Positions 19,444 through 36,729 are shown, counted from the first letter of the stretch. The stretch: DNA of 64,000 bases from a virus (IMGVR_UViG_3300044652_000032:1-64000); one strand, 5' to 3'. Notes: generated by a model not told the origin, from the letters alone. Numbers and translations are program-made.

Positions 19444-20874
19444 ATGGCCACACCGTTAACAGAAGCGGATGCGCTCAAACTCGAGCGCCAGCGCGTTGCC
19501 GGCGTAACGCAGCGCTACGGCGCACCCGCGCGCCCCGTCGCCGTCCACGCCCTCACGAAGCCTCGCCGCTCGTACACACCTTATGGCCGTGCCCGCGAAG
19601 TTTGGGAGTCCACGGAGCCGCGAATCGTCTATGCCGGGCCAGCCGACACCGGAAAGACAATGTGTCTGCTGCACCTATTAGACCAGCTGTGCTGGACGCA
19701 CAAGGGGCTGCGCGCGGCCATAGTCCGTAAGGTGCGCGCCGACATGCCCGGCACCGTCTTGCAGACGTGGGAGCGCAAGGTGCTGGGGATGCCGGACGGC
19801 GAGGCCGATGCTCCGGGAGGCGTGCACAAGCACGGCGGCGAATCGGCGGCCTTCTACCAGTACCCCACCAACAGCCGCGTGTGGATCGCCGGACTAGACC
19901 GCCCCGGCAAGGTGCTGTCGGGCGAGCTGGACGTCGTCGTGGTCAATCAGGCCGAGGAGTTGGACGTCGAGGACTGGGGCACGCTCACGACCAGAACGAG
20001 TGGCCGCGCCGGAGTGCTTAGGCCGGGACGTCTGCTCGCGGACGCCAATCCGGGGCCGAGCACGCACTGGATAAAGGAGCAGGAGCGCGAGGGCACGCTC
20101 CGCTTTGTTGAGAGCCGCCACCGCGACAACCCCGACCTCTACGACCAAGCAACAGGCCAGATGACCGAGGAGGGCCGCCGCAGGCTCGACGCGCTGGACA
20201 AGCTGCCCGGCGTGCTGCGCGACCGTCTGTACTTGGGATTGTGGAAGAGCGCGGAGGGCACGGTCTTCCAACCTTTCCACGTCGAGGACGCGCCCTACGC
20301 GCCCATCAACTACTTTATCGGCGGAGTTGATTGGGGATACTCCAACCCCGGATGCCTCGTCGTCTACGGCGTTGACGGCGACGATAGACTATATCGCTTC
20401 TGTCAGTGGTACGAGACGCACGTCGCGGTGGAGAGCCGCAACCCGGACGACGACACGTGGGTGCGGCGCGCGCAGGCGCTGCAGGAGCGGTACAACTGCG
20501 TATCGTGGCAGTGCGACCCCGCCCGTCCGGAGTTCATCGCGGCGTTCCAGAGCGCGGGACTGCCGGCAATAGGCGCGGACAACAATATACTGCAGGGCAT
20601 CCAGTACATCGAGGCGCGGCAGCGCAAGGCGGGCGACGGCCTGCCGCGCATCGTGCTGCTACGCGGCAGCCGTGGCCCCGTGGACGAGACGTTGAAGAAG
20701 GCGCACAAGCCCACCTGCCTTGAGGAAGAGGCGGAAGTTTACGTTTACCCCAAGGATCCGGCGTCCGGCAAGACCGTGAAGGAAAATCCGGTGGATGCCA
20801 ACAATCACGAGGCGGACGCCACGCGCTACATCGTCAATTCAATTGACGGGGCGTCGGGATTCTTCTTCGGCTAA
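19444..20874 (+). CDS. terL: Terminase large subunit
   Basis: Walker A AGPADTGKT, Walker B VNQAEE, ANPG, nuclease GGVDWGYSNP, NNHEADATRY. Confidence 0.92.
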   Translation: MATPLTEADALKLERQRVAGVTQRYGAPARPVAVHALTKPRRSYTPYGRAREVWESTEPRIVYAGPADTGKTMCLLHLLDQLCWTHKGLRAAIVRKVRADMPGTVLQTWERKVLGMPDGEADAPGGVHKHGGESAAFYQYPTNSRVWIAGLDRPGKVLSGELDVVVVNQAEELDVEDWGTLTTRTSGRAGVLRPGRLLADANPGPSTHWIKEQEREGTLRFVESRHRDNPDLYDQATGQMTEEGRRRLDALDKLPGVLRDRLYLGLWKSAEGTVFQPFHVEDAPYAPINYFIGGVDWGYSNPGCLVVYGVDGDDRLYRFCQWYETHVAVESRNPDDDTWVRRAQALQERYNCVSWQCDPARPEFIAAFQSAGLPAIGADNNILQGIQYIEARQRKAGDGLPRIVLLRGSRGPVDETLKKAHKPTCLEEEAEVYVYPKDPASGKTVKENPVDANNHEADATRYIVNSIDGASGFFFG

Positions 20875-21195: not shown

Positions 21196-21414
21196 ATGAG
21201 AAAGTTCTACGTCGTGTTTTGCGCCAACTTCGAACGGTGTGGATGTCACATCCCGTCGAGCATCGTTATCCACGAAACGGAAGGGCACCCGCCGCTTGAC
21301 ACCGAAGAGGGATTGGCACTTTGTCGCAAGGAGATACTCACCACCATGCAACAGGCCAACCCTAACACCGATGCGGCGGAGATAATCATTCTCAACTGGA
21401 AGGAGCTGCAGTGA
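21196..21414 (+). CDS. Hypothetical protein
   Basis: ends IILNWKEL, GTGA overlap. Confidence 0.5.
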   Translation: MRKFYVVFCANFERCGCHIPSSIVIHETEGHPPLDTEEGLALCRKEILTTMQQANPNTDAAEIIILNWKELQ

Positions 21415-22220
21415 CGCAGCGCATCATCACGCTCGGCACTAGCTACGACCTGCTGAAGAGCAGGATAGAGGGGCGTGTGCGTGAGTTGAAGAGTAAAGAT
21501 GAGGCGGGGCACTGGGTGACCATCGAGGGTGAGCACGTCTTCATCAAGGACGGGGTAATTGAAAAAGGGCCGTCCGCCTTGGTCGGCAAGGATCCCGCTC
21601 ATCTTCCGCCGCGTGAGGAGAAGCATGAGAGTATTGACGGCGTTAAGACGCAGGCGCACCCTCTTACCGGGGAGGAGCACAAGGCGCTGGACAGCTATAT
21701 GTGGGGTAACTGGGCGACGCTTAACGATTCTCTGCGTAGGGGACAGGAACTGAGCGGATCGCTCAAGGAGCAGCACGAAACGCTCAACCGCATGGCTAAC
21801 GACAGACTGGAAAAGGAGACCGTCCTCCACCGCGTGAGCGTCCACCCGCTCTCGGCCATAGAGGGGACATCAGGAAAGGGTATAAGCGGCAGCTATACCG
21901 GCCACGCGACGCTCAAGGGCTATAGCTCCACGTCGTTGGATAAAAGCGTCACCGACGATTTTACCAAGGAATCAGTAGGTGGATCGGGCAGGGACGCCGA
22001 GATACACTGGCAACTGACCGCGCCCGCCGGTACGCGCGGGATTTATGCGGACGGCAGGCTTCAGACTTCGGGGCGTAGCAACGATTTGAACCAGAAGGAG
22101 TTTATACTTCCGCACGGCACAGGCATTTCCATTCGTCAGATAGAACGGACGGGGCCGAAGACTTATACTATTCATGCGCACGTTATGAGTCAGGGCGGAA
22201 AGGCCATTCGCAATGACTAA
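21411..22220 (+). CDS. ADP-ribosyltransferase (VIP2/C3-like) with N-terminal signature peptide
   Basis: ALDSY...LNDSLR, VLHR, GYSSTS, PAGTRGIY, NQKEFILP.GT (R-S-E triad). Confidence 0.85.
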   Translation: MTQRIITLGTSYDLLKSRIEGRVRELKSKDEAGHWVTIEGEHVFIKDGVIEKGPSALVGKDPAHLPPREEKHESIDGVKTQAHPLTGEEHKALDSYMWGNWATLNDSLRRGQELSGSLKEQHETLNRMANDRLEKETVLHRVSVHPLSAIEGTSGKGISGSYTGHATLKGYSSTSLDKSVTDDFTKESVGGSGRDAEIHWQLTAPAGTRGIYADGRLQTSGRSNDLNQKEFILPHGTGISIRQIERTGPKTYTIHAHVMSQGGKAIRND

Positions 22221-23724
22221 CACGCACCATAGCCGCTTTATTTGGACGGAGAATCAGTTGCCAATCGGTGAACTTTTGTCTAAACACGCGAAAGAGAGGA
22301 AGTCCCTAAAGAAGTTCGGAGGCTACGACTACGCCTCGTCGCAGTTGAATATCGCCGATTCGGACGCCAACGTCGCGCGCCAAGTGCTCCAACTCGGACG
22401 ACAGATACCCGAGGATAAACTGGCCGACAAGGGCCGCGAGACCACGCCGCACGTCACGCTGCGCTACGGTCTGACGGACGACGACCCTACGCAGATGCGG
22501 CAACTTCTCGCAGGCCAGACGCCCGTGCGCATGCGGCTGGGCGACGTGGACGCCTTCACCTCCGACGAGACCGGAGCGCCCTACGACGTCGTGTACCTCA
22601 CGGTGCACAGCGACGACCTCGACCGACTGAACCGGACGGTGGCGGACAACCTGCCGAGCGTCGAGACGCACCCGTGGTACGCTCCGCACTGCACCTTGGC
22701 ATACGTGAAGCCGGGCACGGGTAAGGACGTTGCGGCGGGGCTGGACAACCCGCTGGAGGGCACTGAGCTGACGGCCACGCACGTGCTGCACAGCGACCGC
22801 GGGGGCAACCTGACGCGCATACCGCTGACCGACGGCCAGAGCCTGCGTCGTCTTATTGCCGATCGTCTTGCGGAGATAAAGGCTGACGCCGACTGCCACT
22901 GGGTTACGCTCGACAACGACGCGCACGTCTGTATAGGGGGTGATGGGACGGTGCACGCGGGGCCGAAGGAGTTGGAAGGACAGAAGTTTGGCGACAATGA
23001 TCGAGAGGGCGCTTCACGTGTGAGCCTATCGCCCTCCGAAGGGTATATTAAGACGCTGCGCGAAGATGCGCTCCAGCGCATCCGCGACGAGAAGGCAAAA
23101 GGCAAGTCGGATTTTGGCATCCGCGATATATATTTTGCGCTAGGCCACCGGGCCGACGACGCTACTATCTATGCGTTGGCCGAGCACATAGAGAAAGCGT
23201 CCTCTCGCGAGGCGATGTACGACGTTCTCGAGTCCGGTATGCGATGGAACAGAGACTTTAAGGACGCTGGGTTGGAGTGGGCTGCCGCACGTGCCTTGGG
23301 CGGTAACACGGACTTACCTAAGGGGATGAAGCCGCCTTCGCTGACGGACGATCAGAAGGCAGCCTTCCGTGCTCGCATGGAGTTCGTGCAGGAGCACACG
23401 CGGCAGGAGTACAACGGGGCGTCAACCGTGGATGTTTATCGCGGGGTGAAGGGCGCGCAGGGCAAGATCATAAATCAATCCGACGAGAACGAAATTGATC
23501 TCAAGGTGCGATCCCTCTCTAGCTGGACTCCCTACCGATCTTTGGCGCAGGGCTTCGCAGGCACGGGGTCAACGGGCGTGGTTCTCCGCGCCACGGTTCC
23601 GGTGCGGGACATTTTTTGGAATAACGATATTGTTCGCGGGATGCGGATGTTCAATTTTAGCGACGACGCTAAAGAGCTGGTGACGCTGACGTCCTCAGCC
23701 ACGCGTCGATCGAGGGTGATGTAA
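22213..23724 (+). CDS. 2H phosphoesterase (Acb1-like) fused to a C-terminal ART-like domain
   Basis: PHVTLRYG and PHCTLAY HxT motifs; C-terminal VYRG, LSSWT...A..FA, GVVL, KELV. Confidence 0.75.
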   Translation: MTNTHHSRFIWTENQLPIGELLSKHAKERKSLKKFGGYDYASSQLNIADSDANVARQVLQLGRQIPEDKLADKGRETTPHVTLRYGLTDDDPTQMRQLLAGQTPVRMRLGDVDAFTSDETGAPYDVVYLTVHSDDLDRLNRTVADNLPSVETHPWYAPHCTLAYVKPGTGKDVAAGLDNPLEGTELTATHVLHSDRGGNLTRIPLTDGQSLRRLIADRLAEIKADADCHWVTLDNDAHVCIGGDGTVHAGPKELEGQKFGDNDREGASRVSLSPSEGYIKTLREDALQRIRDEKAKGKSDFGIRDIYFALGHRADDATIYALAEHIEKASSREAMYDVLESGMRWNRDFKDAGLEWAAARALGGNTDLPKGMKPPSLTDDQKAAFRARMEFVQEHTRQEYNGASTVDVYRGVKGAQGKIINQSDENEIDLKVRSLSSWTPYRSLAQGFAGTGSTGVVLRATVPVRDIFWNNDIVRGMRMFNFSDDAKELVTLTSSATRRSRVM

Positions 23725-24656
23725 TGGTCAGAACTATAGTAATAGACGAGCAGCAGGATGACGAGTGGCAGAGACTATTTCAAGCCGAGAAAAAGCGCGC
23801 CACAAAGCATTGTGGCCATCCCGAACGTCACGTTGACGGCGACGCCACAAAGCCGTTGAAGCCCCGCTTCATCACCAAGGAGGACTTGCGTCGGGCCGTG
23901 GTGGAGAAGTACGGGCGCGATCTGACCGCGGACGAGGCCGAGGAAGAGTTGCGCCGCATAGCGCGCGAGCAGGAGGACACGATGACCAAGCGAGTTGACT
24001 TCCCTACGCTGAGGGAGAGGATCGTGAACCGGAGGGACGAGCTGAAGGGCAGCCCCGACCAGCCGAGGGATGACCACGGGAGGTGGACGAGCGGTGGCGA
24101 GGGCGACGCGCCACACGAACAGACTGCCAAGGAACTCGTCGGCAAGTTGGAGGGCGCGCGTCGTCAGTACAGCACCCCCGTCGGCGAAGGCTTCCGTGAG
24201 TCTTTCCATAATCAGGAGATTAACAGCAAGACCGCCGAGGCATTGGACAAGCACCTCACAGACGCGGGGTACAAGAAGACCGAGCACACTGGCGCGGAGG
24301 GGGAGAAATATACGACCTATGACAAGGGCGAGAAGGGCGCGACTATCGAGCACTACGGTCATTTTGGGGAAGGCTGGGAGGATACGCATATAGCTTCCTT
24401 GGAACATCTGCCTAAAGAGGAGAAGCCGCTGCCCAAGTTGTCCTCCTATCAGCTAGAGCGCTCGGCGGCAGGCATATCAATGTACGGCGGCATCCGTGAT
24501 TTGAACCCCTTGAGAATCCACACGGATAATGAGCTGTCTGATTTGCACAAACAACTTTCTAGCTGGAAGCCGCAGCGCGGTGATAAGCAGATGGACAAGA
24601 GAACAGCGCTAGGCTATATCGAGGATGAGCAGTATCGTAGGAAGCGGGGATCATAA
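23724..24656 (+). CDS. Cargo-type protein with PDQPRDDHGRW motif and unknown C-terminal domain
   Basis: TAATG coupling; KGSPDQPRDDHGRWTSGG at 24045-24098. Confidence 0.7.
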   Translation: MVRTIVIDEQQDDEWQRLFQAEKKRATKHCGHPERHVDGDATKPLKPRFITKEDLRRAVVEKYGRDLTADEAEEELRRIAREQEDTMTKRVDFPTLRERIVNRRDELKGSPDQPRDDHGRWTSGGEGDAPHEQTAKELVGKLEGARRQYSTPVGEGFRESFHNQEINSKTAEALDKHLTDAGYKKTEHTGAEGEKYTTYDKGEKGATIEHYGHFGEGWEDTHIASLEHLPKEEKPLPKLSSYQLERSAAGISMYGGIRDLNPLRIHTDNELSDLHKQLSSWKPQRGDKQMDKRTALGYIEDEQYRRKRGS

Positions 24657-24907
24657 TGAAACTGCCTAGTTGCAAAATCTATGACCTCGTCGTCCTGTCG
24701 GGCGTCTTCGCCTTGGTCTTTTGCACCGTGGCCGGACTGGTCATGGACTTCGTATTGACGTGGCGCGGGATGCAGATGTCGGAGACGATGTCGCGCGCCT
24801 CCGCCGCCGCGCTGGGCGCGCTCATCGTCATCGTTACCAACGCCAACCAGCGCCGCAACCACGACGTGCACGGGGAGACTGAGAAGAATGGCGACGCACA
24901 GGCCTAA
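24656..24907 (+). CDS. Small membrane protein
   Basis: Two TM helices, TAATG coupling. Confidence 0.55.
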   Translation: MKLPSCKIYDLVVLSGVFALVFCTVAGLVMDFVLTWRGMQMSETMSRASAAALGALIVIVTNANQRRNHDVHGETEKNGDAQA

Positions 24908-25103
24908 TGTCCCGCTCGAGCGTATGCCCTCGGCCACGGAGTACCGGCAGGTGCTGGACGCCGCCACAGAGGACTGCTACTGCACGGCTGCGATGCGCGC
25001 GGGTATAATCCAGACGGGCGACGAGATGTGCAAGCCGTGCGCCGCGCGCACGCTGGTCAACGGGATAGTGACGCTGGCTGCTAAGCTGCCGAGGATACAT
25101 TGA
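24888..25103 (+). CDS. Hypothetical Cys-rich protein
   Basis: CYC...CKPC. Confidence 0.45.
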   Translation: MATHRPNVPLERMPSATEYRQVLDAATEDCYCTAAMRAGIIQTGDEMCKPCAARTLVNGIVTLAAKLPRIH

Positions 25104-25159
25104 TGCGCTTCTTTGTTCAGCGGTTGCCGCGCTATTACCGTCATAGAGGTACATTACCA

Positions 25160-25435
25160 ATGAGTGAAGAAAGACTGCAAATAACCGATGCCATGTTGGA
25201 GGACATTGCCGTGCTACGTCCGGCTATCCACCGTGACCTTTGCCGCATGGCCGCACGCCGATTGGGCTATGACTTTTTAACCGGCGAGAGGCTGGAGCGC
25301 GTGATGGCGTCGAGCATGGCTATTATGGACTTTGGACTACCCTTTCCCTACGCCTTCGCCGAGGCTGTATCCGACGAGATGATATTGTACGGGGATCCGC
25401 GTGGTGGGACAGAACCCGTAGGCATAATGCGATGA
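25160..25435 (+). CDS. Hypothetical protein
   Basis: GAGGT SD, ATGA overlap. Confidence 0.45.
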   Translation: MSEERLQITDAMLEDIAVLRPAIHRDLCRMAARRLGYDFLTGERLERVMASSMAIMDFGLPFPYAFAEAVSDEMILYGDPRGGTEPVGIMR

Positions 25436-25863
25436 AAATCTCTCTAACAGAGACGCAGAACTTCGCGGAGTACACGGCGTCGTACTCGCCGCTGCCGCGC
25501 TGGCTCGGCTGGATTCCTTACCGCCGACGGGTGCGCGGCTTGTATTCCGCCGACGAGGAAACCGGCGAAATTCGCCGACAACGGTATAATCGGCGCGGCC
25601 AGCCCCTGTACGTCAGCGCGGACGGGGACAAAATAGCCCTTAACGATACACTGAAGGTGCTGCTTCTGGACGAGAGACTGGCGCAGCGCTTCGTGCAGGA
25701 GTTCAAGCCGATGCTCGTGACGGAGTACAAGCGCGATGTGAGGGTGGAGCACCGCAAGGCCGAACGCGTCGAGCAGCAAGCGATTCCTGCGGAGTTGCAG
25801 CAGCGGCTGGAGGGCGAGACCTACGTAATAACCAGCGGGATGTACGGCGGAACTAGCTTGTAA
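25432..25863 (+). CDS. Hypothetical protein
   Basis: Coupled to portal (TAATG). Confidence 0.5.
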   Translation: MKISLTETQNFAEYTASYSPLPRWLGWIPYRRRVRGLYSADEETGEIRRQRYNRRGQPLYVSADGDKIALNDTLKVLLLDERLAQRFVQEFKPMLVTEYKRDVRVEHRKAERVEQQAIPAELQQRLEGETYVITSGMYGGTSL

Positions 25864-27458
25864 TGGTTGATATCAACACCAGACTACTGAAGGCGGGTGC
25901 GGGCGGCGGCACGGTGGGCGGCGGTCTGCCCTTCCAGAACTACGGCGCTGGCTGGGGTGCAGCGTCCATATACTCAAGCTGGGCGTCATGGGATGCGGCG
26001 CTCGACCGCATGTACCCCGACGCCGGAACCTCGCGCATCAACTGGGCCGCTCGCGCCGGAGACCCCACCACGTCGCGGTTGATGATGGCGCTGTACCGCT
26101 TTCTGAGCAACGTGCTGCCCGAGGCACCGCTGCAAGTCAGGAAGAAGGAGGGCGGCCAGAGCGGCGTCACCGGGCAGAGCGAACCCGTAGCCGACCACCC
26201 CATGGTCGCGCTGTGGAACCAGCCCAACAAGTTCTACTCCGGCTCGACGTTGATGAAGGGTTTGGCCTTCTCGTGGGCGACGCGCTCGGAGGCCTACATC
26301 CTCAAGGCCGTCAACACGGTGGGCGAGGTGCTGGAGCTGTGGTACGAGCCGCCGTGGTCTATCCGGCCCGTTTGGCCTATAGACGGAAGCGAGTACATCT
26401 CCTACTACGAGGTCAACCGCAACGGCACGTGGTATCCCGTCGAGCGTGAGTACGTCGTCCACCTGCGGGACGGTTTCCACCCCTACAACCAGCGCATAGG
26501 CTTCGAGACCAGCGTGGCCATCCTGCCCGAACTGGCCGGGGACAAGGAGGCCGCCTACTACTACGCCAACCTGATGTCCGGCTCGGGCGTCCCGCCCTTC
26601 ATCGTCGGCATAGACCCGCAGACCAAGATGAACGACGTGCAGGCCCGCCAGCTGCAGCAGCGTCTGGTCCAAGGCACCACCGGCGACAAGAAGGGCGAAC
26701 CCGTGGTCATCGCGGGAGGTAAGGCTTACAGGCTCGGGTTCACGCCGCGCGAACTTAACCTTGAAGAGACGCGGTACATGCCCGAGGACTCCTTCTGCGC
26801 CGTCAAGGGCTGTCCGGCGGTCGTGCTGGAGCTGGGCGCTGGGCGCGCCAACTCAATCTACAACAACGTGCAGGCGGCGGAGGAGAGGGCGTGGCGCTCC
26901 TACGTCAAGCCGCTGCTCCGCCACATCCGCGAGGAGCTGACCAGCCAGTTGCTCGTTGACTTCGAGGACGTGGACGAGCAGGGACGCATCACGACGGGCG
27001 CATACCTCGAACATGACTTTTCGGAAGTACAGGCGCTGCAGGAAGACCGCGACGCTAAGGCCAAGCGCATCGGCCAGCTTTGCAACGACGGCGTCATCAT
27101 GCTCTCCGAGGCGCGCTCCGAGATGGGCTACGGCCCTTCGGACGGCAAGAACTGGGAGCGCGACAAGATATTCCGCGTCAGCCGCGGCGTCACGCTGGTC
27201 AAGCCCGGCGAGCAGCCGCTGCCGCAGGGCGAGCAGATTATAGACATGACCACGGGCAAGGTCACACGCGAAGCCCAAGCGCCCACGCAGCCGCCCTCGC
27301 CCTTCGGCCCGACGCCCGCTCAACCCGGCGTGTCCCCGACCGAAGAGCAGACGGCCAAGAGCATACGAGCGCGCATAGCCGAGGCCCGACGACTACGCGC
27401 TCTGCCGCCCGCGCCACCGGAGAGCAACGGCAACGGACACCACAGGCTAGAGTTATAA
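25863..27458 (+). CDS. Portal protein (HK97-like)
   Basis: DHP...LWNQPN.FYSG, VVHLRDG, YNNVQAA, QALQED, SEARSEMGY. Confidence 0.9.
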   Translation: MVDINTRLLKAGAGGGTVGGGLPFQNYGAGWGAASIYSSWASWDAALDRMYPDAGTSRINWAARAGDPTTSRLMMALYRFLSNVLPEAPLQVRKKEGGQSGVTGQSEPVADHPMVALWNQPNKFYSGSTLMKGLAFSWATRSEAYILKAVNTVGEVLELWYEPPWSIRPVWPIDGSEYISYYEVNRNGTWYPVEREYVVHLRDGFHPYNQRIGFETSVAILPELAGDKEAAYYYANLMSGSGVPPFIVGIDPQTKMNDVQARQLQQRLVQGTTGDKKGEPVVIAGGKAYRLGFTPRELNLEETRYMPEDSFCAVKGCPAVVLELGAGRANSIYNNVQAAEERAWRSYVKPLLRHIREELTSQLLVDFEDVDEQGRITTGAYLEHDFSEVQALQEDRDAKAKRIGQLCNDGVIMLSEARSEMGYGPSDGKNWERDKIFRVSRGVTLVKPGEQPLPQGEQIIDMTTGKVTREAQAPTQPPSPFGPTPAQPGVSPTEEQTAKSIRARIAEARRLRALPPAPPESNGNGHHRLEL

Positions 27459-27465
27459 GGAGAGG

Positions 27466-27849
27466 ATGATGACCGTACCGCAGACCGCCACCGTGACCAC
27501 TCCGACCATCGGCGAGGTCGAGACCGTAGCCCCGGCCATAGCCGACGCCGTGCTGCTCGCCCCGCACGCCGCGACCAAGACCGTGGCTGCCAGCGGAACA
27601 GCCGTCAAGCTGACGGCTTCCGCCCAGCGCTGCCACAGCGTATTAATCGTCCCGCTCTCCACCAACACGGGCAACGTCTATGTCGGTGACTCTACCGTGA
27701 ACAAGACCACGTCGCCGCAGATCGTCATCCCGAAGGGCGCGCCGCCCGTCACGATAGAGGTGCCTGTGGGCTACTGCATCGACCTCACGCAGTGGTATCT
27801 GGACGCGGACGTCAACGGCGAGGGCGTCGCCTTCCTATACATGGTCTGA
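27466..27849 (+). CDS. Probable virion structural protein
   Basis: Beta-rich, NTGNVYVGDS, DADVNGEGV. Confidence 0.55.
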   Translation: MMTVPQTATVTTPTIGEVETVAPAIADAVLLAPHAATKTVAASGTAVKLTASAQRCHSVLIVPLSTNTGNVYVGDSTVNKTTSPQIVIPKGAPPVTIEVPVGYCIDLTQWYLDADVNGEGVAFLYMV

Positions 27850-27869
27850 GTCAACGGAGGAGCAACCCC

Positions 27870-30419
27870 ATGGGCGTCCGCTATCCTATTCAACGCGCGC
27901 TTTACGGCAACGGCAACTCCGTGGTCTGCAACGCGGACGGCTCCGTGGATATGTTCGCCGCCAACGGCCAGCCCGTCACCACGCACGAAGACCGGCTGCG
28001 CGTCACGCAGGGGCCGATAGAGCAGCCCGGACTTTCCGGCGTCGCGCTCAGCGCCGCGGGCGAGGGCCGCTTCTGGTTCGACGCCGGCACAAACCACTGG
28101 ATGTACTCGGAGAACCACGGAGCGGCGACGCAGGCGTTCGGCGCTGCGAGCATCACCGCGAACACGACGGTCAACCGCGTCCCTTACCTCTCCGGCGCGA
28201 ACACCTATGCAGACAGCCCCGTGTCCGTGCAGAGCGGCATGGTCGGCATCAACCTCGGCTCGGTCGCGCCGCCGACGATGTTCACCGTGGGCGACACGCT
28301 CAACTCCACCCCACGCGGGCTGATGTCGTGGCAGGCTTCGACGGACGCTAACAGCGCGCACTTCCACCTCCGCAAGAGCCGCGGGACGTTCGCCGCGCCC
28401 ACGGTCGTCGTTACCGCCGACGTGATGGGGCGCATCGTCTTCAGCGGCTACGACGGCAGCGCGTACAACGAGTCAGCCTATATCCGCTCGACCGTCACGG
28501 GCACGGTCGCCGCTAACCGCGTGCCGTCGAAGATGGAGTTCTTCACTTCGACCGACGCCGCGCCTTCCGTGGCTACGGTCGCCCTCACTTTGAACGCCGA
28601 CCAGAGTGCCAACTTCGTCAACACCGTCAACGCGACTACCTTTGTCGGTGCTTTGACGGGCACAGCGAGCGGCAATCTCAACAAGACGGGCGACACGCTC
28701 ACGGGCACGGCAGGTGCAGGCTTCCTCGGCTTCCCCTCGCAGTCTTCTAACCCTTCAACTCCCGGTTCAGGCTTCGTTCTCTTCGCAGAGAGCGCAGGCA
28801 AACTCGCGTACAAGCGACCGGACGGGTTCGTGCGGAAGTTCGACTTCGGCTCTCCGACCGCCGATAGAACCATCACCTTCACCGATGCTGACATCACAGT
28901 GGCAGGGACGAACGTCGCGCAGACGTTTTCGGCCACGCAAACTTTCTCAAGCAATAGTGTCATTGTCGGACTCCAACCCGCATCGGACTCGACAACTGCA
29001 ATCCGAGTTTATAAGGCGGACGGCTCTACCGTTATCCTGACCGTTGATTCAACGAATCGAACTCTTACCGTTACGGGTACGTCCGGCAGTTCGCAGTTTC
29101 GTATCACGGATAGCACGAACAGCAAGACGCGATTCTTCCTGAACAACAACGATGACCTGTCCTTTCTAAACAACGCGGCAGTTAGACAGTTCACTCTTCT
29201 GAGCGCCAGCGGCTCGGCGCAGGTTCCGAGTGGTGGCGCGTTTAGCTTTTCAAGTACGACGGCATCGGATGGTACGGCAGACACTTTCCTAACTCGCGCC
29301 GCCGCAGCCAACCTCCGCTTCGGAGCAGCCGACGCAGCCGCACCCGTTGCTCAGACAGTCTCGGTTCAAAACGTCGTCGCCGGGACTTCCAACACGGCGG
29401 GCGTTGACTGGACGTTTCAAGGCTCGCAGGGGACGGGCACGGGCGCTGGCGGGAAGTTCGTCTTCAAAGGTGCTCCGGCTGGCTCGACCGGCACGGCTCA
29501 GAACGCGCTCTCGACCCTGTTCACGATTGACCCGGCGACGGGCGTCACACTTGGAAGCGGGCAGATGCTTCTGCCTGACGGGAGCGTATCAAATCCTGTA
29601 ATCGGATTTTCGTCTAAGACGGGCAACGGCATTTATCACGTTCCCGCCACTGACGCCGTAGGCGAACTATCAATAGCGATAGGGGGAGTACAAAAGTACA
29701 GATTCAGAAGCAGCCTCTTCATGCTCACAGGGCCGACGCTGGCTATCAGAAATGATAGCGGCTCGATGACGATGGGTTCTGCTGATGACGTTGCTTTATT
29801 CCGCGACGCGGCGAACGTCCTCGCCCTCAGAAACGGGTCGACCGCGCAGACGTTGCGCGTCAGCGGGTCTTACACAGACTCGTCCAACCGGCGCGGCGTG
29901 GCACTACTCGGCGGCTCGTCAACGCCCTCGATAGTCGCCTACGGCATAGGAACGCAGGCGAGCGCGGACGGCGTTCTCACGATTCAGAACAACGGCGCGA
30001 CGGGACTCGGCACGCTCGCGCTCGGCGCTTCAACGCCTTCGACAATCGGCTCACTTCCGACGCACGGGCAGACGCTCTCCATCCTGCAAGCCGAAGAGTC
30101 GTTGACCATCGCGGCGGCTGCCACGACAACGACCACGATGCAGATTCCGGCGAACGCCGTCGTCATGGCCGTGAGCGTGAGAGTGACGACGGTCATACCC
30201 ACTGCCGCGACCTTCACCGTCAAAGTCGGCACTACCACCGTCAGTACGACGAACATTTCAACCGCCGCTGGTACTACCGACCCCGGCACGTTCGCGGGCA
30301 GCTTCTACAACTCCACAGCGCAAGGCGTGACGATTACGCCGAACTCGACGCCGGGCGCGGCCACGGGCGTTGTGCGAGTGACGGTCATGTACTACTTGGT
30401 CACGCCGCCGACTTCGTAA
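27870..30419 (+). CDS. Long T/S/A/G-rich fibre-like virion protein
   Basis: Composition and fibre-like segments (RKSRGT..APT, LTRAAAANL, RDAANVLALRNG). Confidence 0.7.
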   Translation: MGVRYPIQRALYGNGNSVVCNADGSVDMFAANGQPVTTHEDRLRVTQGPIEQPGLSGVALSAAGEGRFWFDAGTNHWMYSENHGAATQAFGAASITANTTVNRVPYLSGANTYADSPVSVQSGMVGINLGSVAPPTMFTVGDTLNSTPRGLMSWQASTDANSAHFHLRKSRGTFAAPTVVVTADVMGRIVFSGYDGSAYNESAYIRSTVTGTVAANRVPSKMEFFTSTDAAPSVATVALTLNADQSANFVNTVNATTFVGALTGTASGNLNKTGDTLTGTAGAGFLGFPSQSSNPSTPGSGFVLFAESAGKLAYKRPDGFVRKFDFGSPTADRTITFTDADITVAGTNVAQTFSATQTFSSNSVIVGLQPASDSTTAIRVYKADGSTVILTVDSTNRTLTVTGTSGSSQFRITDSTNSKTRFFLNNNDDLSFLNNAAVRQFTLLSASGSAQVPSGGAFSFSSTTASDGTADTFLTRAAAANLRFGAADAAAPVAQTVSVQNVVAGTSNTAGVDWTFQGSQGTGTGAGGKFVFKGAPAGSTGTAQNALSTLFTIDPATGVTLGSGQMLLPDGSVSNPVIGFSSKTGNGIYHVPATDAVGELSIAIGGVQKYRFRSSLFMLTGPTLAIRNDSGSMTMGSADDVALFRDAANVLALRNGSTAQTLRVSGSYTDSSNRRGVALLGGSSTPSIVAYGIGTQASADGVLTIQNNGATGLGTLALGASTPSTIGSLPTHGQTLSILQAEESLTIAAAATTTTTMQIPANAVVMAVSVRVTTVIPTAATFTVKVGTTTVSTTNISTAAGTTDPGTFAGSFYNSTAQGVTITPNSTPGAATGVVRVTVMYYLVTPPTS

Positions 30420-30432
30420 CAAGGAGCAATCA

Positions 30433-30730
30433 ATGTCAGTCACACTTAACTTCGATTCACTGACCCCGCTCGGCCCGCGCGGCGGTCGCGGCCATCATCC
30501 CCGAACCAGCAGAGGGCGAGACGAAGGAGACGGTCGAAGAATACTTGACTCGTCTCGGCGCTGGTCAAGCGGCGGTTGATTCTTACGTCGAAGCCTTCAC
30601 CGCGCAGGGGACGGCTCAATTCGCCGAGTTGGGGCGCGAGTTGTTTCTGGCGATGGCGACCGACCCGGCGAAGAAGGCGCAGTTGGAGCCGCTGATCGAG
30701 CAGGCCAGAGCCATCCTCGGCATCGCTTAA
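30433..30730 (+). pseudogene. Small gene split by an apparent +1 frameshift near 30472
   Basis: SD and ATG at 30433 give MSVTLNFDSLTPL; protein-like sequence continues in the +1 frame (ARAAVAAIIPEP...ILGIA). Confidence 0.45.
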
Positions 30731-30778
30731 AGCGTCCGTCTCGAGCGTCTGCCGGAGCTACAACGGGTTTTTAGCTGC

Positions 30779-32110
30779 ATGACCGTACCCTTCCCTGTTA
30801 AGAGTTATGATCCGGACGAGCCGCGCGACGAGCGTGGACGGTGGAGTGCGGAGGGAGGGAATCCTGCGGACGCAGACCTTGGTAAGCACAACTTCCCTTT
30901 CCCCGAAGAATCTGGCCTTACATATATCAGCCACATCACCGACAAGATGCCCTTCGTAGGCGACACGAAGGTGGACGAGGTGCTGAAGGCCGCCGACGCC
31001 GCTAATCCGGACTGGCGTTTTGGCCTTACAAAAGATGGCAACGACCTGTGGACGGAAGAAAGAGTTCAGTCCGTTCCGGTAGACAAGATTCGTTCTTTGC
31101 AACACGCCGTCAACTTGGAGACCGTCCGCACTTATCAGCGGGAGACGCCTGCGGGACGTGAGCCGCTGGCACTAAAGTACGGCGGTCAGTACTATCTACG
31201 TAATGGTAACCATCGCGCGCTGGCCGAGATACTCAACGGGGCGAAGAAGGTAAAGTTACACGTCTATGATATTGATACTGAATCCAAGAAGTCGCTGAAG
31301 GCGGCGGACACGACGCTGAAGGAGCGGTTCGACGACTTCCTCGCCCGCGCCGAGCAGGAGGGCTTCCTCACCGCAGACCAGATTGACGACCTACGCCAGC
31401 GCTACGAGGACGGCGACGTAACGGACGAGGATCTGCCCCTCCCGCTGGACGAGGCCATTGATGACGACCTCACGGAGCAGGACGTTGAGGACGCCAAGCG
31501 CAGACTGGGCGCAGCTATACTCCTTGCCACCTTCGCGGGTCGAGCGCTGCTCCGCGACCGATTGCAGACCAAGTTCGAAGACAGAGCAGCCGCCCGTGCC
31601 GCGCAGCCCTCGCTCGCCCAGTGGCAGCGGGACTTCAAAGACGATATTGCACGCTACACGACAGACCAAGCCGTGCTGGGCGACCGTGGCACGGTGAGCG
31701 CGGAGCGGCTGCAATCAATCAGCGACATCGTCCAGCAGCAGCAGGCCTACCTCTCGCGCTTCGCCGATCAGCGGGCCGCCCGCGCCCTCACGGGCGACGA
31801 GATGACGGACGCGTACATCGCCGCGCGCAGCCAGCTCTACTCGGGGCAGGGCCGTGCGGAGTGGTTCAAGGGCGCGGAGGACGAGGAGGCCACACCCGAC
31901 ACCGTCGTGTACTACGAGGCCGTAGGCGATGCGTCCACGTGTGATGCCTGTCTCCACGCCGAGGCCGGGAGTCCTTACTTGCCGGGCGAGGGGCCGTATC
32001 CGGGCGAGGTGTGCGACGGCCACGGCTACTGCCGCTGCGAGCGCCGTGCCGTACACGACCCCGAGCTGGCCAAGATATTGCGGGGCGAACCGGACGCTCC
32101 TACCGACTAA
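30779..32110 (+). CDS. MuF-like head morphogenesis protein with N-terminal ParB/Srx-like domain
   Basis: C-terminal D.STCDAC...PGEVCDG..YCRC; N-terminal YYLRNGNHRALA; KSYDPDEPRDERGRW motif. Confidence 0.75.
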   Translation: MTVPFPVKSYDPDEPRDERGRWSAEGGNPADADLGKHNFPFPEESGLTYISHITDKMPFVGDTKVDEVLKAADAANPDWRFGLTKDGNDLWTEERVQSVPVDKIRSLQHAVNLETVRTYQRETPAGREPLALKYGGQYYLRNGNHRALAEILNGAKKVKLHVYDIDTESKKSLKAADTTLKERFDDFLARAEQEGFLTADQIDDLRQRYEDGDVTDEDLPLPLDEAIDDDLTEQDVEDAKRRLGAAILLATFAGRALLRDRLQTKFEDRAAARAAQPSLAQWQRDFKDDIARYTTDQAVLGDRGTVSAERLQSISDIVQQQQAYLSRFADQRAARALTGDEMTDAYIAARSQLYSGQGRAEWFKGAEDEEATPDTVVYYEAVGDASTCDACLHAEAGSPYLPGEGPYPGEVCDGHGYCRCERRAVHDPELAKILRGEPDAPTD

Positions 32111-32249
32111 GACTATATCCGCTGGGCTACTGAAAAGTAACTCGCCTTTTTCGTTCCTCTTCCATAAAAATCCGCTGAATTGACGGGCGAACGTATAATC
32201 GCGGCGTCGCGTTACGTTTGCAACCGTTTTGCGTCTGCTGCATTCCTAG

Positions 32250-35200
32250 ATGACCACGATGACTACCAGTTCGGGCTACCCTCCATACCCGAAGGTGACG
32301 GGCGTGGAGACCGGCGCGGGCGATGTGGCCCGGATACCCACGGAGCAGGACAAGATGAATCGCTGCCAAGTCTGCGGCCAAACCGAGGAAGACAATCCCG
32401 CTCACGAGGACGACTACTCCGGGCCGGGCAAGCACAAGTTCCGTCCTGCGGCGGAGGAGAAGTCCTTGGGTGACGACATGTACGTCACCACTCCCGCCTC
32501 CGGCATGGCCATCAAGTCGCTGGGCGGCGGACGCTTCGCCGGTTACATGATCCGCCACACCTCCGCCGCCGACCCCGACCTGACCAACGACTACTTTACC
32601 AAGAGCACCGAGCGCTACATCGAGGTCGGAGACACCATCCCCGTCCTCTACGACCACGGATTAGACCCCACGCTCAAGCGCACACGAATCGGAAGGGCCA
32701 CCGTCAAGGACATTGACGACGTCGGCGTCTGGATCGAGGGACAGTTGAAGCTGCGCGACGGCTACGAAAAGAGCGAGCGCGTGCAAAAGTACCTCGACGC
32801 TATTGACACTCAACTCATCCGTCCGGGCAAGGCCGGACTCAGTACGGGCGCGGCCAGTCACATGGTGGAGCGCAAGAAGTCGGAGCGGAAGGGCGTAAGT
32901 GAGATAACGGCGTGGGGCGTGGCCGAGGTCTCGATTACTCCAATGCCCACGGAGCCGCGTGCGGCAGCGATGAGCGTGAAGAGCCTGCGCGAGTACGCCG
33001 TCGAGCCGGAGGCCGACGCCCGCGACTTCCTCAAGGCCGTGTGGAGCGGCAAGCACAAGAACGACCTCCCGGACTCGGCCTTCGCCTTCATAGAGAGCGG
33101 TGGGTCAAAAGACTCGGAGGGCAAGACCACGCCCCGCTCGCTCCGCCACTTCCCGATACGCAATAGCGCAGGCGACCTTGACGCTTCACACGTCAGGAAC
33201 GCACTGGGGCGCATCCCGCAGAGCGACCTGAGCGACGACGACAAGCAGAAGGCGCTCGCCAAGGTGAAGGCTGCCGCGAAGGAGCTGGGCATCGGCGACG
33301 AGGAGCAAAAGAGCCTGATGCTCAAGGGCAGCCCCGACCAGCCGAGGGACGATCATGGGCGTTGGAGTTCTGGCGGCGGTGACGAAAGTAGCGTGAAGGT
33401 AATTAATCATAGCGACGGGCTTCCTCACATGCGGCCTGAGTATTACCAGAACACAGCGGCTTCGGCAAAGACCGTTGACAGAGAATCTTGGCGAGATAAG
33501 ATTAAGGAGGATCGCACTCTCGAGGTTCATAACCACCCTAATGGGGTAGAAATTCACGACAAAGGGTCAAACACTACTCGCATTTCAACATTTACACACG
33601 AGGGTGCACACGCACTCGGCAACGCATTAAGTCAGGCGGCAAAAAGCGCGTCGGATAATCAGCGCGTCGAATCCAAGCATACGACAAACGGATTTCAACA
33701 TTATATTGAAAACTACAGTAAAGAGGATGCGGCTTCTCTCGGAGCAGCCTTGTCCAATATACGTCCGCCGCGCGAGTCGAAGAGTGTCGGCAAGATGGTG
33801 GAGGAGGGTAACTTCTACCGCTACCGCCTGCGCGACCCCTCCGACTTCGAGCAGGACTCCTTCCGCACCATCACGCTCGGCAACGCCGGAGGCAAGGCCA
33901 AAGGCCCGAAGATACAGGCCGTCGTAGGCAAGCTGAAGGGCGAGGACGCCATGACGCTCCAGACCTACATGTTCCCCACCGACGAGTGGGACGAGGACGA
34001 CGTCCAGCGGTGGGTGGACGACCACAAGGACAAGAAGTCGCTCGCTTTCCTGGGGTGGTCCGACATCAAGGGTTCGCCTGATCAGCCGAGAGATGATCAT
34101 GGCAGGTGGACGAGCGGGGGAGGGGATGATACGGCTGGCGGTGACTCAGTGTCCGTAGGCAAATTTTCTTCACCGACTCCAGACCACTTTGGCACACGTG
34201 AGGATAATCCCGAAAAACCCCCCGCAGGATGGTCGCGTACCGCCTCGGATAAATTGCAGCGGTATGTAATGACACCGTCTGGCGAGTATAAAGTAACCAT
34301 TACCTACCATAACGGTAACTATGCCAAGGTAGACGCACAACAGTCGGGGCGCAGCATCAATGATAGGTATATTTTCAACGGACGGCGACTTGGCGGCAAC
34401 GAGATGGTAGAGTGGGACAAGTTGCCTTCGTATTTGAACAATCTTAGCCATCAATTGTCTAATTTACCTGATTTATCACGGAAGAGTATGCCCGGCTCCA
34501 CGCTCGCTCTGCCGCACAAGCCCCACCAGTACATGGGCGACTCGGACGGGCGGTGCAAGGTGTGCGGCAAGGCGGAGGACGACCCCCTGCACGAGGAGGC
34601 CGCAAAGCGGCTGAGCCGTCCGCTGAAGACTTTGTTCGAGGAAGAGCTGGCGCAGATATCGCCTTCGGTCTGGACGTTGCAGAGCGCGCGGGACAACGTG
34701 CTGTCCGACATTGCGGCGGCCAAGCTGGTGGAGGGCGTGGCGGGTACGCCTGTGGACGTGCAGGGCAAGGTCACCGAGTGCATGACGGAGTACGCCGCGC
34801 GATTTATCCCGCTGGCCGTGGCGCAGATAAACGACTGGGTCGAGGATCAGTCGGAGCCGGGTAGCGATTCCTACAACAACGGCAGGTTCTACCTGCGTAG
34901 CATCAACATTCATTCTTTAGCCGACCTTATAAACGACGATGCGACCAAGAGCGAGGGCGTGCCTGCCCTCCGCTTGGCCGACCACTCCGCACGGACGGTG
35001 TCCGCCGTAGAGGAGTTCGCGACCATTACGACGCGACTGACGGGAGCGGTTAAGGGCTTCCTGCAGCGCGTCTCTGACCGCATGGAGTTCCGCCGCAACC
35101 AGCCCACGACCAAGAGCGGGCGCGTGCTCAGCAAGGAGAACAGCGACCGCCTGCGGGAGTTGCACGCTTCTCTCGGCTCCGCGATAGACGACGCCAAGGA

Positions 35201-35369
35201 GATGCACGGGCATCTGGGCGACCTGATAGAGCGGGCCAACAGCAAGTACGCCTCCGATAACGACGGTGACGAGCAGAGCAAGAAGGCTCTGGCCGACGAG
35301 TGGGAGACGAGGCTGATGGTGCTCAACGCCGAGGTCGACACCGAGCTGGCGCTGGCCGGAACACACTGA
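32250..35369 (+). CDS. HK97-type prohead protease polyprotein with inserted domains
   Basis: VLYDHG (His), GLSTG (Ser), EVSITPMP; ~750 further aa containing repeated motifs. Confidence 0.85.
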   Translation: MTTMTTSSGYPPYPKVTGVETGAGDVARIPTEQDKMNRCQVCGQTEEDNPAHEDDYSGPGKHKFRPAAEEKSLGDDMYVTTPASGMAIKSLGGGRFAGYMIRHTSAADPDLTNDYFTKSTERYIEVGDTIPVLYDHGLDPTLKRTRIGRATVKDIDDVGVWIEGQLKLRDGYEKSERVQKYLDAIDTQLIRPGKAGLSTGAASHMVERKKSERKGVSEITAWGVAEVSITPMPTEPRAAAMSVKSLREYAVEPEADARDFLKAVWSGKHKNDLPDSAFAFIESGGSKDSEGKTTPRSLRHFPIRNSAGDLDASHVRNALGRIPQSDLSDDDKQKALAKVKAAAKELGIGDEEQKSLMLKGSPDQPRDDHGRWSSGGGDESSVKVINHSDGLPHMRPEYYQNTAASAKTVDRESWRDKIKEDRTLEVHNHPNGVEIHDKGSNTTRISTFTHEGAHALGNALSQAAKSASDNQRVESKHTTNGFQHYIENYSKEDAASLGAALSNIRPPRESKSVGKMVEEGNFYRYRLRDPSDFEQDSFRTITLGNAGGKAKGPKIQAVVGKLKGEDAMTLQTYMFPTDEWDEDDVQRWVDDHKDKKSLAFLGWSDIKGSPDQPRDDHGRWTSGGGDDTAGGDSVSVGKFSSPTPDHFGTREDNPEKPPAGWSRTASDKLQRYVMTPSGEYKVTITYHNGNYAKVDAQQSGRSINDRYIFNGRRLGGNEMVEWDKLPSYLNNLSHQLSNLPDLSRKSMPGSTLALPHKPHQYMGDSDGRCKVCGKAEDDPLHEEAAKRLSRPLKTLFEEELAQISPSVWTLQSARDNVLSDIAAAKLVEGVAGTPVDVQGKVTECMTEYAARFIPLAVAQINDWVEDQSEPGSDSYNNGRFYLRSINIHSLADLINDDATKSEGVPALRLADHSARTVSAVEEFATITTRLTGAVKGFLQRVSDRMEFRRNQPTTKSGRVLSKENSDRLRELHASLGSAIDDAKEMHGHLGDLIERANSKYASDNDGDEQSKKALADEWETRLMVLNAEVDTELALAGTH

Positions 35370-35388: not shown

Positions 35389-36729
35389 ATGGCAGAAGAA
35401 CCCAAAGTTTATGAGCGCGAACGGGACGTCGAGGCGATGAATTACGACGCCATCAAGTCCTTTGTCAAGGACAAGCGCGAGGAGATGAGCAAGTTCTACA
35501 AGGAGGAGGTGCAGGGCAAGGCTCCGCACTCCAACGTCCTCAAATCGCTGCAGGTGCGCGAGGCCGAAATCAAGGCCGCCAACGAGCGCATGACGCTGCT
35601 CCGCGAGGCCGACGAGGCCGAAAAGCGCAACCGCGACGAGTACAAGTCCACGTTCGGCACCGCACGGCTGCCCGTCCCGCACGAGGGCGGGCGCGGCAAC
35701 GGTAACGGCGCTGACGACCACGGCGACATGGCCGTTGCCAAGTCGATCGGCCAGATGTTCGTGGACAGCCGCGAGTACGAGAAGGCGGCCAGCAAGGGGC
35801 TTAAGAGCTGGGACGCGCGCTACGACGGCACGCTCATCGCCGAGCTGGACGAGGCCTCGATAAAGTCGTGGGATCCCTACGCCGTCAAGACCACGATGAC
35901 GACCTCGGCGGGCTGGGCACCGTACCCCGCGCTCTCGCCGCGTCCTCCGGTCATGACGGCGCTGCAGCAGCCCGTGGTCAGCGACCTCATCCCGCAGGAC
36001 GACACCACGCAGCCCGCTATCCTCTACTACGAGGAGACGGCCTTCTCCGACGCCGCAGCGCCGACCGCCGAGGGCGGCGTCAAGCCCGAGCAGCAGCTCG
36101 CCCTCACGCTCCGCACGCAGCCCATCTGCAAGATCGCCGCCACGCTCCCCATCACCGACGAGCAGCTGATGGACGTTCCGGCGGTGCGCGGTTACATCGA
36201 CCAGCGGCTGACGTTGATGGTGCGTCGGGCGGAGGACTCGCAGCTGCTGACGGGCAACGGCACGTCGCCCAACTTGCAGGGCTTCCACACCAAGAGCGGC
36301 ATCGGCTCGATCGCCCGCGCCTCCAACGAGGACAACGCGGACACGATTCTGCGCGCCATCACGGACGTGAACTCCATCTACGGGTTCGCGAACGCCTCGG
36401 GCATCATCCTGCACCCGCTCAACTGGCTGGCCATACGGCTCATCCGCACCACGACCGGCGACTACATCTGGGGTCACCCGGCCACGGTCGGCCCCGCCAC
36501 GCTGTGGGGTCTGCCCGTGGTGCAGACGGCCATGGAGACGAGCGGCAAGGGCTTGGTCGGCGACTTCCAGATGTACTCGCACATCTCGCGCCGTCTGGGT
36601 CTGAAGATCGACGTCGGCTACATCAACGACGACTTCCAGCGCGACATCCAGCGCATCCGCTTGGAGGAGCGCCTCTCGCTCGAGATCTACAGGGCGCGGG
36701 CGTTCGAAGAGGTGACCAGCCTCCAGTAA
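35389..36729 (+). CDS. Major capsid protein, HK97 fold with delta domain
   Basis: AEGGVKPE, KIAATLPITDEQL.D, QLLTGNG..PNLQG, LHPLNW, LWGLPVV, LVGDF, EERL. Confidence 0.95.
   Translation: MAEEPKVYERERDVEAMNYDAIKSFVKDKREEMSKFYKEEVQGKAPHSNVLKSLQVREAEIKAANERMTLLREADEAEKRNRDEYKSTFGTARLPVPHEGGRGNGNGADDHGDMAVAKSIGQMFVDSREYEKAASKGLKSWDARYDGTLIAELDEASIKSWDPYAVKTTMTTSAGWAPYPALSPRPPVMTALQQPVVSDLIPQDDTTQPAILYYEETAFSDAAAPTAEGGVKPEQQLALTLRTQPICKIAATLPITDEQLMDVPAVRGYIDQRLTLMVRRAEDSQLLTGNGTSPNLQGFHTKSGIGSIARASNEDNADTILRAITDVNSIYGFANASGIILHPLNWLAIRLIRTTTGDYIWGHPATVGPATLWGLPVVQTAMETSGKGLVGDFQMYSHISRRLGLKIDVGYINDDFQRDIQRIRLEERLSLEIYRARAFEEVTSLQ

Follow-up and report, generated by a model that had tools for sequence, protein, structure and literature searches.

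Two conserved peptide tags lead probable capsid-borne enzyme modules in the head-gene cluster of an uncultured tailed phage

The DNA considered here, hereafter the window, is a stretch of 64,000 nucleotides (IMGVR_UViG_3300044652_000032:1-64000) which constitutes the first 64 kb of the source record, a complete uncultured tailed phage of 95,182 bp with direct terminal repeats. Its head module lies at 19.4-36.7 kb on the + strand and runs, in order, through the large terminase (TerL), three accessory (cargo) genes, four small open reading frames (ORFs), the portal, a protein of 875 residues, a MuF-like protein, the protease and the major capsid protein (MCP). Within this module two short peptide elements, here called tag A and tag B, recur in front of cargo domains. 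The cargo is distributed over five genes, being either inserted in the MuF-like and protease-scaffold proteins or borne on small genes between the terminase and the portal, and it comprises two ADP-ribosyltransferase (ART)-like domains, a 2H phosphoesterase, a ParB/Srx-like module and several domains without a family. In most of the cargo modules tag A or tag B comes first and a flexible linker next; the untagged exceptions are the 2H phosphoesterase, the N-terminal domain of cargo gene 3, a DUF6582-like domain and the domain at residues 516-606 of the protease polyprotein. The tags, all on the + strand, are as follows.

21489..21590, +, tag B copy 1: K-SKDEAG-HWVTIEGEHVFI...GP..L.GK, by regular expression
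22879..22986, +, tag B copy 2: K-ADADC-HWVTLDNDAHVCI...GP..L.GQK, by regular expression
24045..24104, +, tag A copy 1: KGSPDQPRDDHGRWTSGG, in cargo gene 3
30800..30862, +, tag A copy 2: KSYDPDEPRDERGRWSAEGG, in the MuF-like protein at a distance of 8 residues from its start codon
33324..33383, +, tag A copy 3: by regular expression, in the protease polyprotein
34068..34127, +, tag A copy 4: by regular expression, in the protease polyprotein

An earlier note on this DNA had placed motif A at 24045, 30800, 33324 and 34068 and motif B at 21489 and 22879, each just after a lysine. All six were reproduced by six-frame searches with regular expressions, and every copy of motif A is directly preceded by [LIV]-K. 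The back-translated pattern of motif A is matched 4 times in the window, where shuffles predict 0.00, and by the same 4 only in the whole 95,182-bp genome, all in the head module; motif B occurs twice, against 0 expected by chance, and in the head module only. Three of the tag A copies share an identical stretch of 14 residues, KGSPDQPRDDHGRW, after which residue 15 is T or S only, residues 16-19 agree, and divergence sets in from residue 20. At the level of the DNA these copies are 71-74% identical over 72 nt, with Ser and Arg drawn from different codon families, such that the conservation is one of protein and not of DNA. In this regard, the proposal that the motif-coding DNA acts as a recombination anchor is weakened, since the DNA copies have diverged and the longest identical run, between copies 1 and 3, is ~26 nt. 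AlphaFold2 (AF2) models built on an alignment of 73 tag A sequences give an RD..GRW turn with an R19-W25 bridge at a predicted local distance difference test score (pLDDT) of ~74, and those built on 26 tag B sequences give a three-strand beta-meander with a core pLDDT of ~78.

The earlier note had also described a similar helix ahead of three of the motif sites, with a related one in the portal tail, and had supposed that it docks the precursors in the prohead. Leave-one-out profiles searched against the six-frame ORFs of the genome lose the omitted helix in the noise (E 7 and rank 5 at best), and the 15 best matches listed for the three-helix profile do not include that of the portal. The helix was accordingly rejected as a shared element, and the docking role ascribed to it is left without statistical support. 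What stands of that observation, therefore, is the motifs and the foreign domains downstream of them and, of its interpretation, the linkage to head genes and the exchangeability of the cargo, while the docking helix is unsupported and the recombination anchor is a weak proposal.

The proteins that carry the tags are set out below, together with the block by which one of them differs from its relatives. GC3 denotes the GC content at third codon positions.

21411..22220, +, cargo gene 1: a 26-residue leader ending LK, tag B, and an ADP-ribosyltransferase (PF03496, E 1.4e-11); GC3 0.67
22213..23724, +, cargo gene 2: a 2H phosphoesterase (PF13563, E 1.5e-12), a junction, tag B, and a DRAT-like ART
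23724..24656, +, cargo gene 3: N-terminal domain, tag A, C-terminal domain; cargo half GC3 0.68
30779..32110, +, MuF-like head protein, 443 residues: tag A, ParB/Srx-like module, K171↓SL boundary (31289-31294), MuF core
32250..35369, +, prohead protease-cargo-scaffold polyprotein, 1039 residues, directly upstream of the MCP gene
33033..34484, +, insertion block of ~485 residues (~262-745) in the polyprotein, from alignment with relatives, which are without it

The domains downstream of the tags are unrelated to one another and lie in AT-richer DNA, as had been remarked, with a GC3 of 0.50-0.69 in the cargo against 0.82-0.92 in TerL, the portal, the protease core, the scaffold and the MCP. The effector-repertoire domains in the window are PF03496, PF13563, a ParB-like domain and a weak match to PF07357, the last being the DRAT-like domain of cargo gene 2 (E 4e-5, below the family cut-off), a protein which also has a K30↓SL site close to its N-terminus. 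A homologue search for the first ART protein, limited to proteins of 147-471 residues, returned only itself; its catalytic loop reads Q-x-E rather than E-x-E (LNQKEF). The domains of cargo gene 3 have no family in Pfam, NCBIfam or PHROG searches, and when the protein is aligned with others that share its tag, the similarity is confined to the tag and linker.

The MuF-like protein shows how its carrier and cargo parts come together. Its MuF label, which had been given from sequence inspection, is borne out by a profile grown from PF04233-positive segments (E 1.4e-10) and by an hhalign probability of 96.3% across the CxxC...CRC region; the Pfam model PF04233 itself has no match on the window protein and reaches E 0.051 on the orthologue in a relative, L286. 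Only residues 168-438 match this orthologue, the N-terminal module of which is different and untagged, and in both proteins the boundary between the N-terminal module and the MuF core reads K↓[SA]-L-K-A-A-D. In turn, the unit of tag A and ParB-like module which heads the window protein is found as a stand-alone gene of 152 residues at another locus, L010 (E 7.9e-12).

The same relation is seen in the protease polyprotein. Its match to Peptidase_S78 (PF04586) is weak, with an E of 7.6e-4 and 20.1 bits against a cut-off of 21, and there is no match in NCBIfam, PHROG or the PDB, nor does a profile of the protease-scaffold proteins find any PDB chain; the YDHG and GLSxGA motifs of its protease part are conserved in 4 relatives. 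Against the protease-scaffold proteins of relatives, which are 533-582 residues long, the polyprotein is 43-52% identical. The insertion sits between protease and scaffold and is ordered as DUF6582-like domain, tag A, module X, the 516-606 domain, tag A and module Y, with a GC3 of 0.50 in module X and 0.55 in module Y, in flanks of 0.83-0.93. The domain at residues 516-606 (33795-34067; F-Y-R-Y-R-L-R-D-P ... W-D-E-D-D-V-Q-R-W) has no family and, at a GC3 of 0.93, is native-like between two foreign modules; it may be an older resident domain. Separately, a Cys-x-x-Cys ... D-[DN]-P-x-H element (C.VCG..EDDNPAH), which may be a small zinc-binding knuckle, occurs twice in the polyprotein, near the N-terminus (32364-32408) and just before the scaffold part (34554-34592), and both copies are kept in relatives.

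Three relatives, L285, L286 and L287, have capsid proteins 57-64% identical to that of the window, and neither tag A nor tag B lies within 10 kb of their capsid genes. In L287, the terminase of which is orthologous to that of the window (E 1.7e-140), a single gene of 140 residues stands between terminase and portal, against the ~5 kb of cargo genes in the window. As judged from these alignments, tagged cargo is shown to be gained and lost between close relatives. The swappable cargo foreseen in the earlier note is thus upheld by the ~485-residue insertion and the tags that relatives are without, by the different N-terminal module of the MuF-like protein and by the foreign GC3.

A search for the motifs across phages, as had been proposed, found linkage to the head module and variable downstream domains for both of them. 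Exact-pattern scans, the counts of which are lower bounds, place tag A on at least 117 IMG/VR contigs and at least 120 bacterial genome contigs, the hosts including Alphaproteobacteria, Actinomycetota, Planctomycetota, Acidobacteriota, Myxococcota and a Firmicute. A profile of 35 columns scored against 1.84 billion representative proteins matches 3,431 of these (clusters) at E<=1e-3 and 491 at E<=1e-10, the longest carrier having 3,849 residues and the number of copies in one protein reaching 9. Compiled over 794 instances, the consensus reads [VLI]-x-K(40%)-[YF](88%)-[DSN]-P-D-Q-P-R-D-[ED]-x-G-[RK]-[WF]-[TS]-x-G-G-G or, in short form, h-x-K-[YF]-[DSN]-PDQPRD-x-x-GRW-[TS]-x-GGG, and this core stays the same whichever the portal or protease family and in hosts drawn from six phyla or more. 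Tag B was found at 40 IMG/VR loci, all genuine, with a linker after its core, G-HWVTI-[ND]-G-x-HV-[FL]-I.

Neither tag is covered by any model of Pfam, NCBIfam or PHROG or by a chain of the PDB, among which the tag A profile gives a single chance match, and the motif strings do not appear in the literature searched. By tblastn with short tag segments, canonical tag A was not found in the 50,697 GenBank phage genomes of INPHARED, which gave nothing or look-alikes of 45-50% (a match in Mx4 was spurious), nor in 72,556 plasmids. The sole look-alike found in a cultured phage is the capsid maturation protease gp18 of mycobacteriophage DrLupo (L282, 6004-6642), which starts MAYNPLQARDRKGRW, a degenerate tag A at the extreme N-terminus. 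Among known kinds of short element, a calcium-binding loop was set aside as its known patterns are not matched, an AT-hook-like DNA-binding motif because the net charge is negative, and an N-end-rule degron exposed by a cut before Tyr or Phe because the second residue is acidic and, in the window, Gly takes the place of Tyr or Phe.

The proteins on which tags occur are of two sorts. The carrier domains are portals (HK97, Mu and lambda types), MuF, Peptidase_S78, S78_2 and DUF2213, and the variable ones include Zeta toxin, ART-PolyVal, ART exoenzyme, ParB, NUDIX, 2H, GNAT, RelA/SpoT and HNH, with RNase A-like, topoisomerase IB and others besides; Pfam searches on tag-sharing relatives returned PF18760, PF06414, PF00293 and PF02195. 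At 58 tag A loci, the genes no more than two same-strand genes away comprise ~13 terminases, ~15 portals, 6 MuF proteins, 3 capsid proteins and 8 prohead proteases; the commonest neighbour families are all head-packaging ones, the portals coming from 5 Pfam families. From these profile matches and neighbourhoods, the tags are shown to be linked to head genes in thousands of phages. Their position within proteins is equally characteristic. In 251 proteins the median spacing between tags is 241 residues, and beyond the last tag there remains a median of 308 residues (5th percentile 116), such that a tag is almost never C-terminal, while the first tag often stands at residues 10-40, in proteases and MuF proteins too. 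A place at the extreme N-terminus coupled with avoidance of C-termini is unlike that of a pure inter-domain linker or cleavage site. On the evidence of sequence, then, the tags are shown to be ancient elements, conserved at the level of protein, which lead modules.

The lysine that precedes the tags in the window bears on how the modules might be released, and the relevant features are those below, in which an arrow marks the putative scissile bond.

35389..36729, +, HK97-type major capsid protein with delta domain (PF05065, E 1.2e-32)
35740, 35863 and 35887, +, capsid Lys sites K118↓S, K159↓S and K167↓T, respectively, in h-K↓S/T contexts
32460, 32514, 32979, 33309, 34035, 34482 and 34626 (starts), +, K[ST][LIM] sites of the polyprotein, at every domain boundary

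The capsid protein aligns with full-length HK97 gp5 (3qpr; E 7.5e-37), the delta domain being covered. The mature HK97 chain in the PDB has 282 of 385 residues, in keeping with the known cut after K103 in FNK↓SLGS. Among 65 homologues of the window capsid protein, K118 (F-K↓S-L-G-Q) and K167 (K↓TTMTTSAGWAPYP) never vary, and K159 is kept in 90% or more. In seven head-module proteins K-S-[LI] occurs 10 times, at domain boundaries, against 1.6 expected from shuffles (~6-fold, P<2e-4), and in the protease polyprotein 5 times against 0.63 (P 0.0002), where K745-S-M and K793-T-L complete the set at every domain boundary. The polyprotein sites at 89, 244 and 793 are kept in relatives, and that after the protease domain is kept also in a distant homologue at a tag B locus, L147. 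Processing after Lys by an HK97-type protease is, from such patterns, plausible; the CBASS-protease preprint contains nothing on S78 specificity. Since K↓SL sites of the polyprotein lie 5 and 12 residues upstream of tags, the real cuts, and with them the new N-termini, may differ from those listed in the earlier note.

An observation apart concerns the start of the polyprotein (32252-32290), M-TTMTTSSGYPPYP, which resembles capsid residues 168-180 (35889-35927), TTMTTSAGWAPYP. The latter would be the mature N-terminus if the capsid protein were cut after the invariant K167, and a start of the M-TTMTTSSGYPPYP type is kept also in L285.

The remaining parts of the head module are listed here for completeness.

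19444..20874, +, large terminase (PHROG terminase large subunit, E 7e-17), marking the upstream limit of the head module
25863..27458, +, portal, HK97-type (PF04860, E 1.3e-37)
27357-27362, +, start of the portal C-terminal tail at K499↓SI, then an Arg-rich helix at 27360-27398; AK↓SI and the Arg-rich segment are kept in L286
27792-30419, +, protein of 875 residues, rich in Ala, Thr, Gly and Ser, between the portal and MuF-like genes; no family match

For a protein of fibre-like character, the 875-residue protein is unusually placed between the portal and the MuF-like gene. L285 has a homologue of 1126 residues, and L286 has at the same position a protein of 967 residues with PF26696 (PTL_trimer) which does not match that of the window. 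The four small ORFs (83, 71, 111 and 143 residues) lie at 24656-25863 between the cargo genes and the portal, the first with an apparent membrane segment, and are candidate immunity or helper genes for the ADP-ribosyltransferases. In another phage, Thermoanaerobacterium phage THSA-485A (L284, 1736-4105), the annotated portal of 789 residues ends in a MuF-type C..C ... HPNC.H and looks like a portal-MuF fusion.

The interpretation we favour, with rather more confidence than doubt, is that the head module with its accessory enzyme modules is a dispersed form of the polyvalent and MuF/portal-fused effector systems, the modules riding in the capsid and undergoing processing at Lys sites. The linkage of tags to head genes suggests that the modules probably travel inside the capsid. 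They would enter the prohead together with their carriers, whereupon the HK97-type prohead protease would cut the polyproteins at h-K↓S/A/G module boundaries, K↓S-L being the best match, a parallel to the Lys sites that are conserved in the delta domain of the capsid protein. Once freed, each module would retain its tag near the new N-terminus, where the tag could serve in docking inside the shell, as a protease exosite or as an ejection signal.

The residues just before the tag offer some indication of a reader. Of 157 proteins with three or more copies of tag A, 74 have a basic residue at -3/-4 in every copy, 59 in no copy and 24 in some copies, where a simulation of independent sites gives 17 and 7 for the all and none classes; furthermore, identity between copies at positions -5 to -1 is twice the between-protein level, more distant flanks being at background. 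The all-or-none class and the near-flank identity argue for a lineage-specific reader of the residues just before the tag, the most evident candidate being the protease that the phage itself encodes. A possible alternative is that the copies descend from a single ancestor and have since been kept alike by purifying selection. About half of the lineages have the lysine, and hence cutting at Lys would be a property of this phage's lineage and not of the tag.

Several points weigh against capsid cargo released at Lys sites. Lys stands at -3 in only 40% of the 794 instances of tag A and 59 multi-copy proteins are without any basic residue before the tag, so the tag itself is not a universal Lys site, and the residue after the pre-tag Lys is Tyr or Phe in most phages, unlike the K↓S of HK97. 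The protease assignment is weak, given a sub-threshold Pfam match and no PDB relative. As canonical tag A was not found in the INPHARED genomes, no virion proteomics applies. Tags are missing from close relatives whose capsid, portal and protease are almost the same, from which it follows that a tag-specific receptor in these head proteins is unnecessary for assembly, and the portals found with tags belong to five families and the proteases to three, which is hard to fit with one co-evolved phage receptor. The invariance of the tags across hosts and across portal and protease families, together with their absence from relatives, thus argues against such a receptor and leaves room for a generic interaction with the shell or DNA path, a protease exosite, a target in the host, or a junction only. 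A further proposition, that tags A and B are portable address labels read by a conserved feature of the HK97-fold prohead or of the DNA-ejection path, is unlikely.

An explanation without cutting or addressing, in which the fusions stay whole, is that the tags are structural junctions or microhomology handles for the shuffling of cassettes, akin to the VENN-type pre-toxin junctions of polymorphic toxins. It accommodates the way in which tags travel with cargo of foreign composition (tag A copy 4 has a GC3 of 0.55, like its cargo), the close relatives that are entirely untagged, the same cargo on different carriers and the 26-nt identical run between copies 1 and 3. We regard it as unlikely nonetheless, as the peptide is nearly identical where the DNA has drifted and the codon families differ, and as the role of a linker leaves unexplained the tags at the extreme N-termini of proteases and MuF proteins, the near absence of C-terminal ones and the all-or-none class of the residue before the tag.

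More improbable still is that the tags act after delivery in the infected cell, either by binding a highly conserved host component or as a timing degron. Such a target would explain an invariance that extends over phages of Proteobacteria, Actinomycetota, Planctomycetota and others, with the same core in at least six host phyla and with different portal and protease families, and the short turn and hairpin peptides on flexible linkers that the models suggest would be typical of docking motifs. No host partner has been identified, however, tags are present also on the head protease and MuF protein, which have no obvious job in the host cytoplasm, and the strict linkage to head genes favours a role in the particle. 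Autoproteolysis at [DSN]-P bonds, which would free the modules without a phage protease, has very little to commend it: while in 86% of instances D, S or N occupies positions -1 and +1, in each case ahead of Pro or close to it, and the element operates across many phage backgrounds that are unrelated, D/S/N-Pro marks a capping turn just as well, a conserved nucleophile or general-base arrangement is wanting, the three main copies in the window read G-S-P, and N-terminal tags have nothing to release.

If the tags do mark proteins that ride in the capsid, they would permit a listing, by sequence only, of effectors injected by thousands of uncultured phages (toxins, ADP-ribosyltransferases and nucleotide-degrading anti-defence enzymes among them) and would provide a possible handle for loading chosen proteins into HK97-type capsids. 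Were they address labels, they would amount to an encapsulin-like cargo-loading code for tailed phages, under which any tagged protein is carried and injected, and the tagged modules, in their thousands, would catalogue the effectors so delivered. The pattern of Lys sites makes a concrete prediction, namely the processing of a cargo polyprotein by an HK97-like protease. On a minimal reading, the tags are a pair of peptide elements, very widespread, by which the boundaries of modules in phage polyvalent proteins are defined.

Amongst known systems, the maturation of HK97 (gp4 protease, gp5 cut at K103↓S104) is alike in its gp5 homologue, in the Lys-Ser/Thr sites at the end of the delta domain and in the K↓SL look-alikes; it differs in having a small, separate protease and no cargo, whereas here a single chain of 1039 residues has a sub-threshold protease match. 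Among protease-scaffold fusion proteins (P2 gpO type), Tsac_2860 of the cultured phage THSA-485A has the protease, the DUF6582-like domain and the coiled scaffold, with 57% identity over residues 259-361, but neither tags nor inserted modules. The capsid-targeting sequence of the T4 internal proteins IPI-III and Alt is removed by the gp21 prohead protease. In common with it there are short N-terminal peptides in a module-leading position, on proteins which enter the head (and are then injected), and processing by the prohead protease, here predicted. There is no sequence similarity, however, and the T4 peptide is cut off, whereas the predicted cut here lies upstream such that the tag stays; the protease family and its site rule also differ (LxE against Lys). 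In encapsulins, likewise, a conserved short peptide (the cargo-loading peptide) is joined through a flexible, Gly-rich linker to a cargo enzyme in an HK97-fold shell, yet these peptides are usually C-terminal with a known binding pocket, as against an N-terminal tag here with no known receptor.

Closer in content are the MuF polymorphic toxins of temperate phages (Jamet et al. 2017, PMC5576092; Bxa, PMC11699363), in which a MuF head protein, the proposed capsid-targeting part (PMC5576092), bears an exchangeable enzyme domain, often an ART toxin. Their variable module is C-terminal, whereas that of the window is N-terminal to the MuF core, ParB-like and led by a tag, and no junction motif is mentioned in PMC5576092. 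Nor is the layout of N-terminal MuF, C-terminal toxin and immunity gene just downstream seen here, the next gene being the protease and no further search for an immunity gene having been made.

Closest of all are the phage polyvalent proteins and the packaged effectors fused to MuF and portal (Iyer, Burroughs, Anand, de Souza, Aravind 2017, PMC5512222). In the window, as in that class, several unrelated effector domains lie in one late-gene cluster among portal, terminase and head genes. The repertoire of ART, 2H, ParB, Zeta toxin, NUDIX and RelA/SpoT is shared, as are the late or head-gene context, the fusion of cargo to MuF and portal and the prediction of packaging and injection. What differs is that the cargo here is spread over five genes and inserted in a protease-scaffold protein; the main text of PMC5512222 describes processing by zincin peptidase domains, none of which were found in the proteins scanned here, and mentions neither tag. 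The tags are undescribed in the papers and family libraries searched, and the proteins that bear them are themselves a known class.

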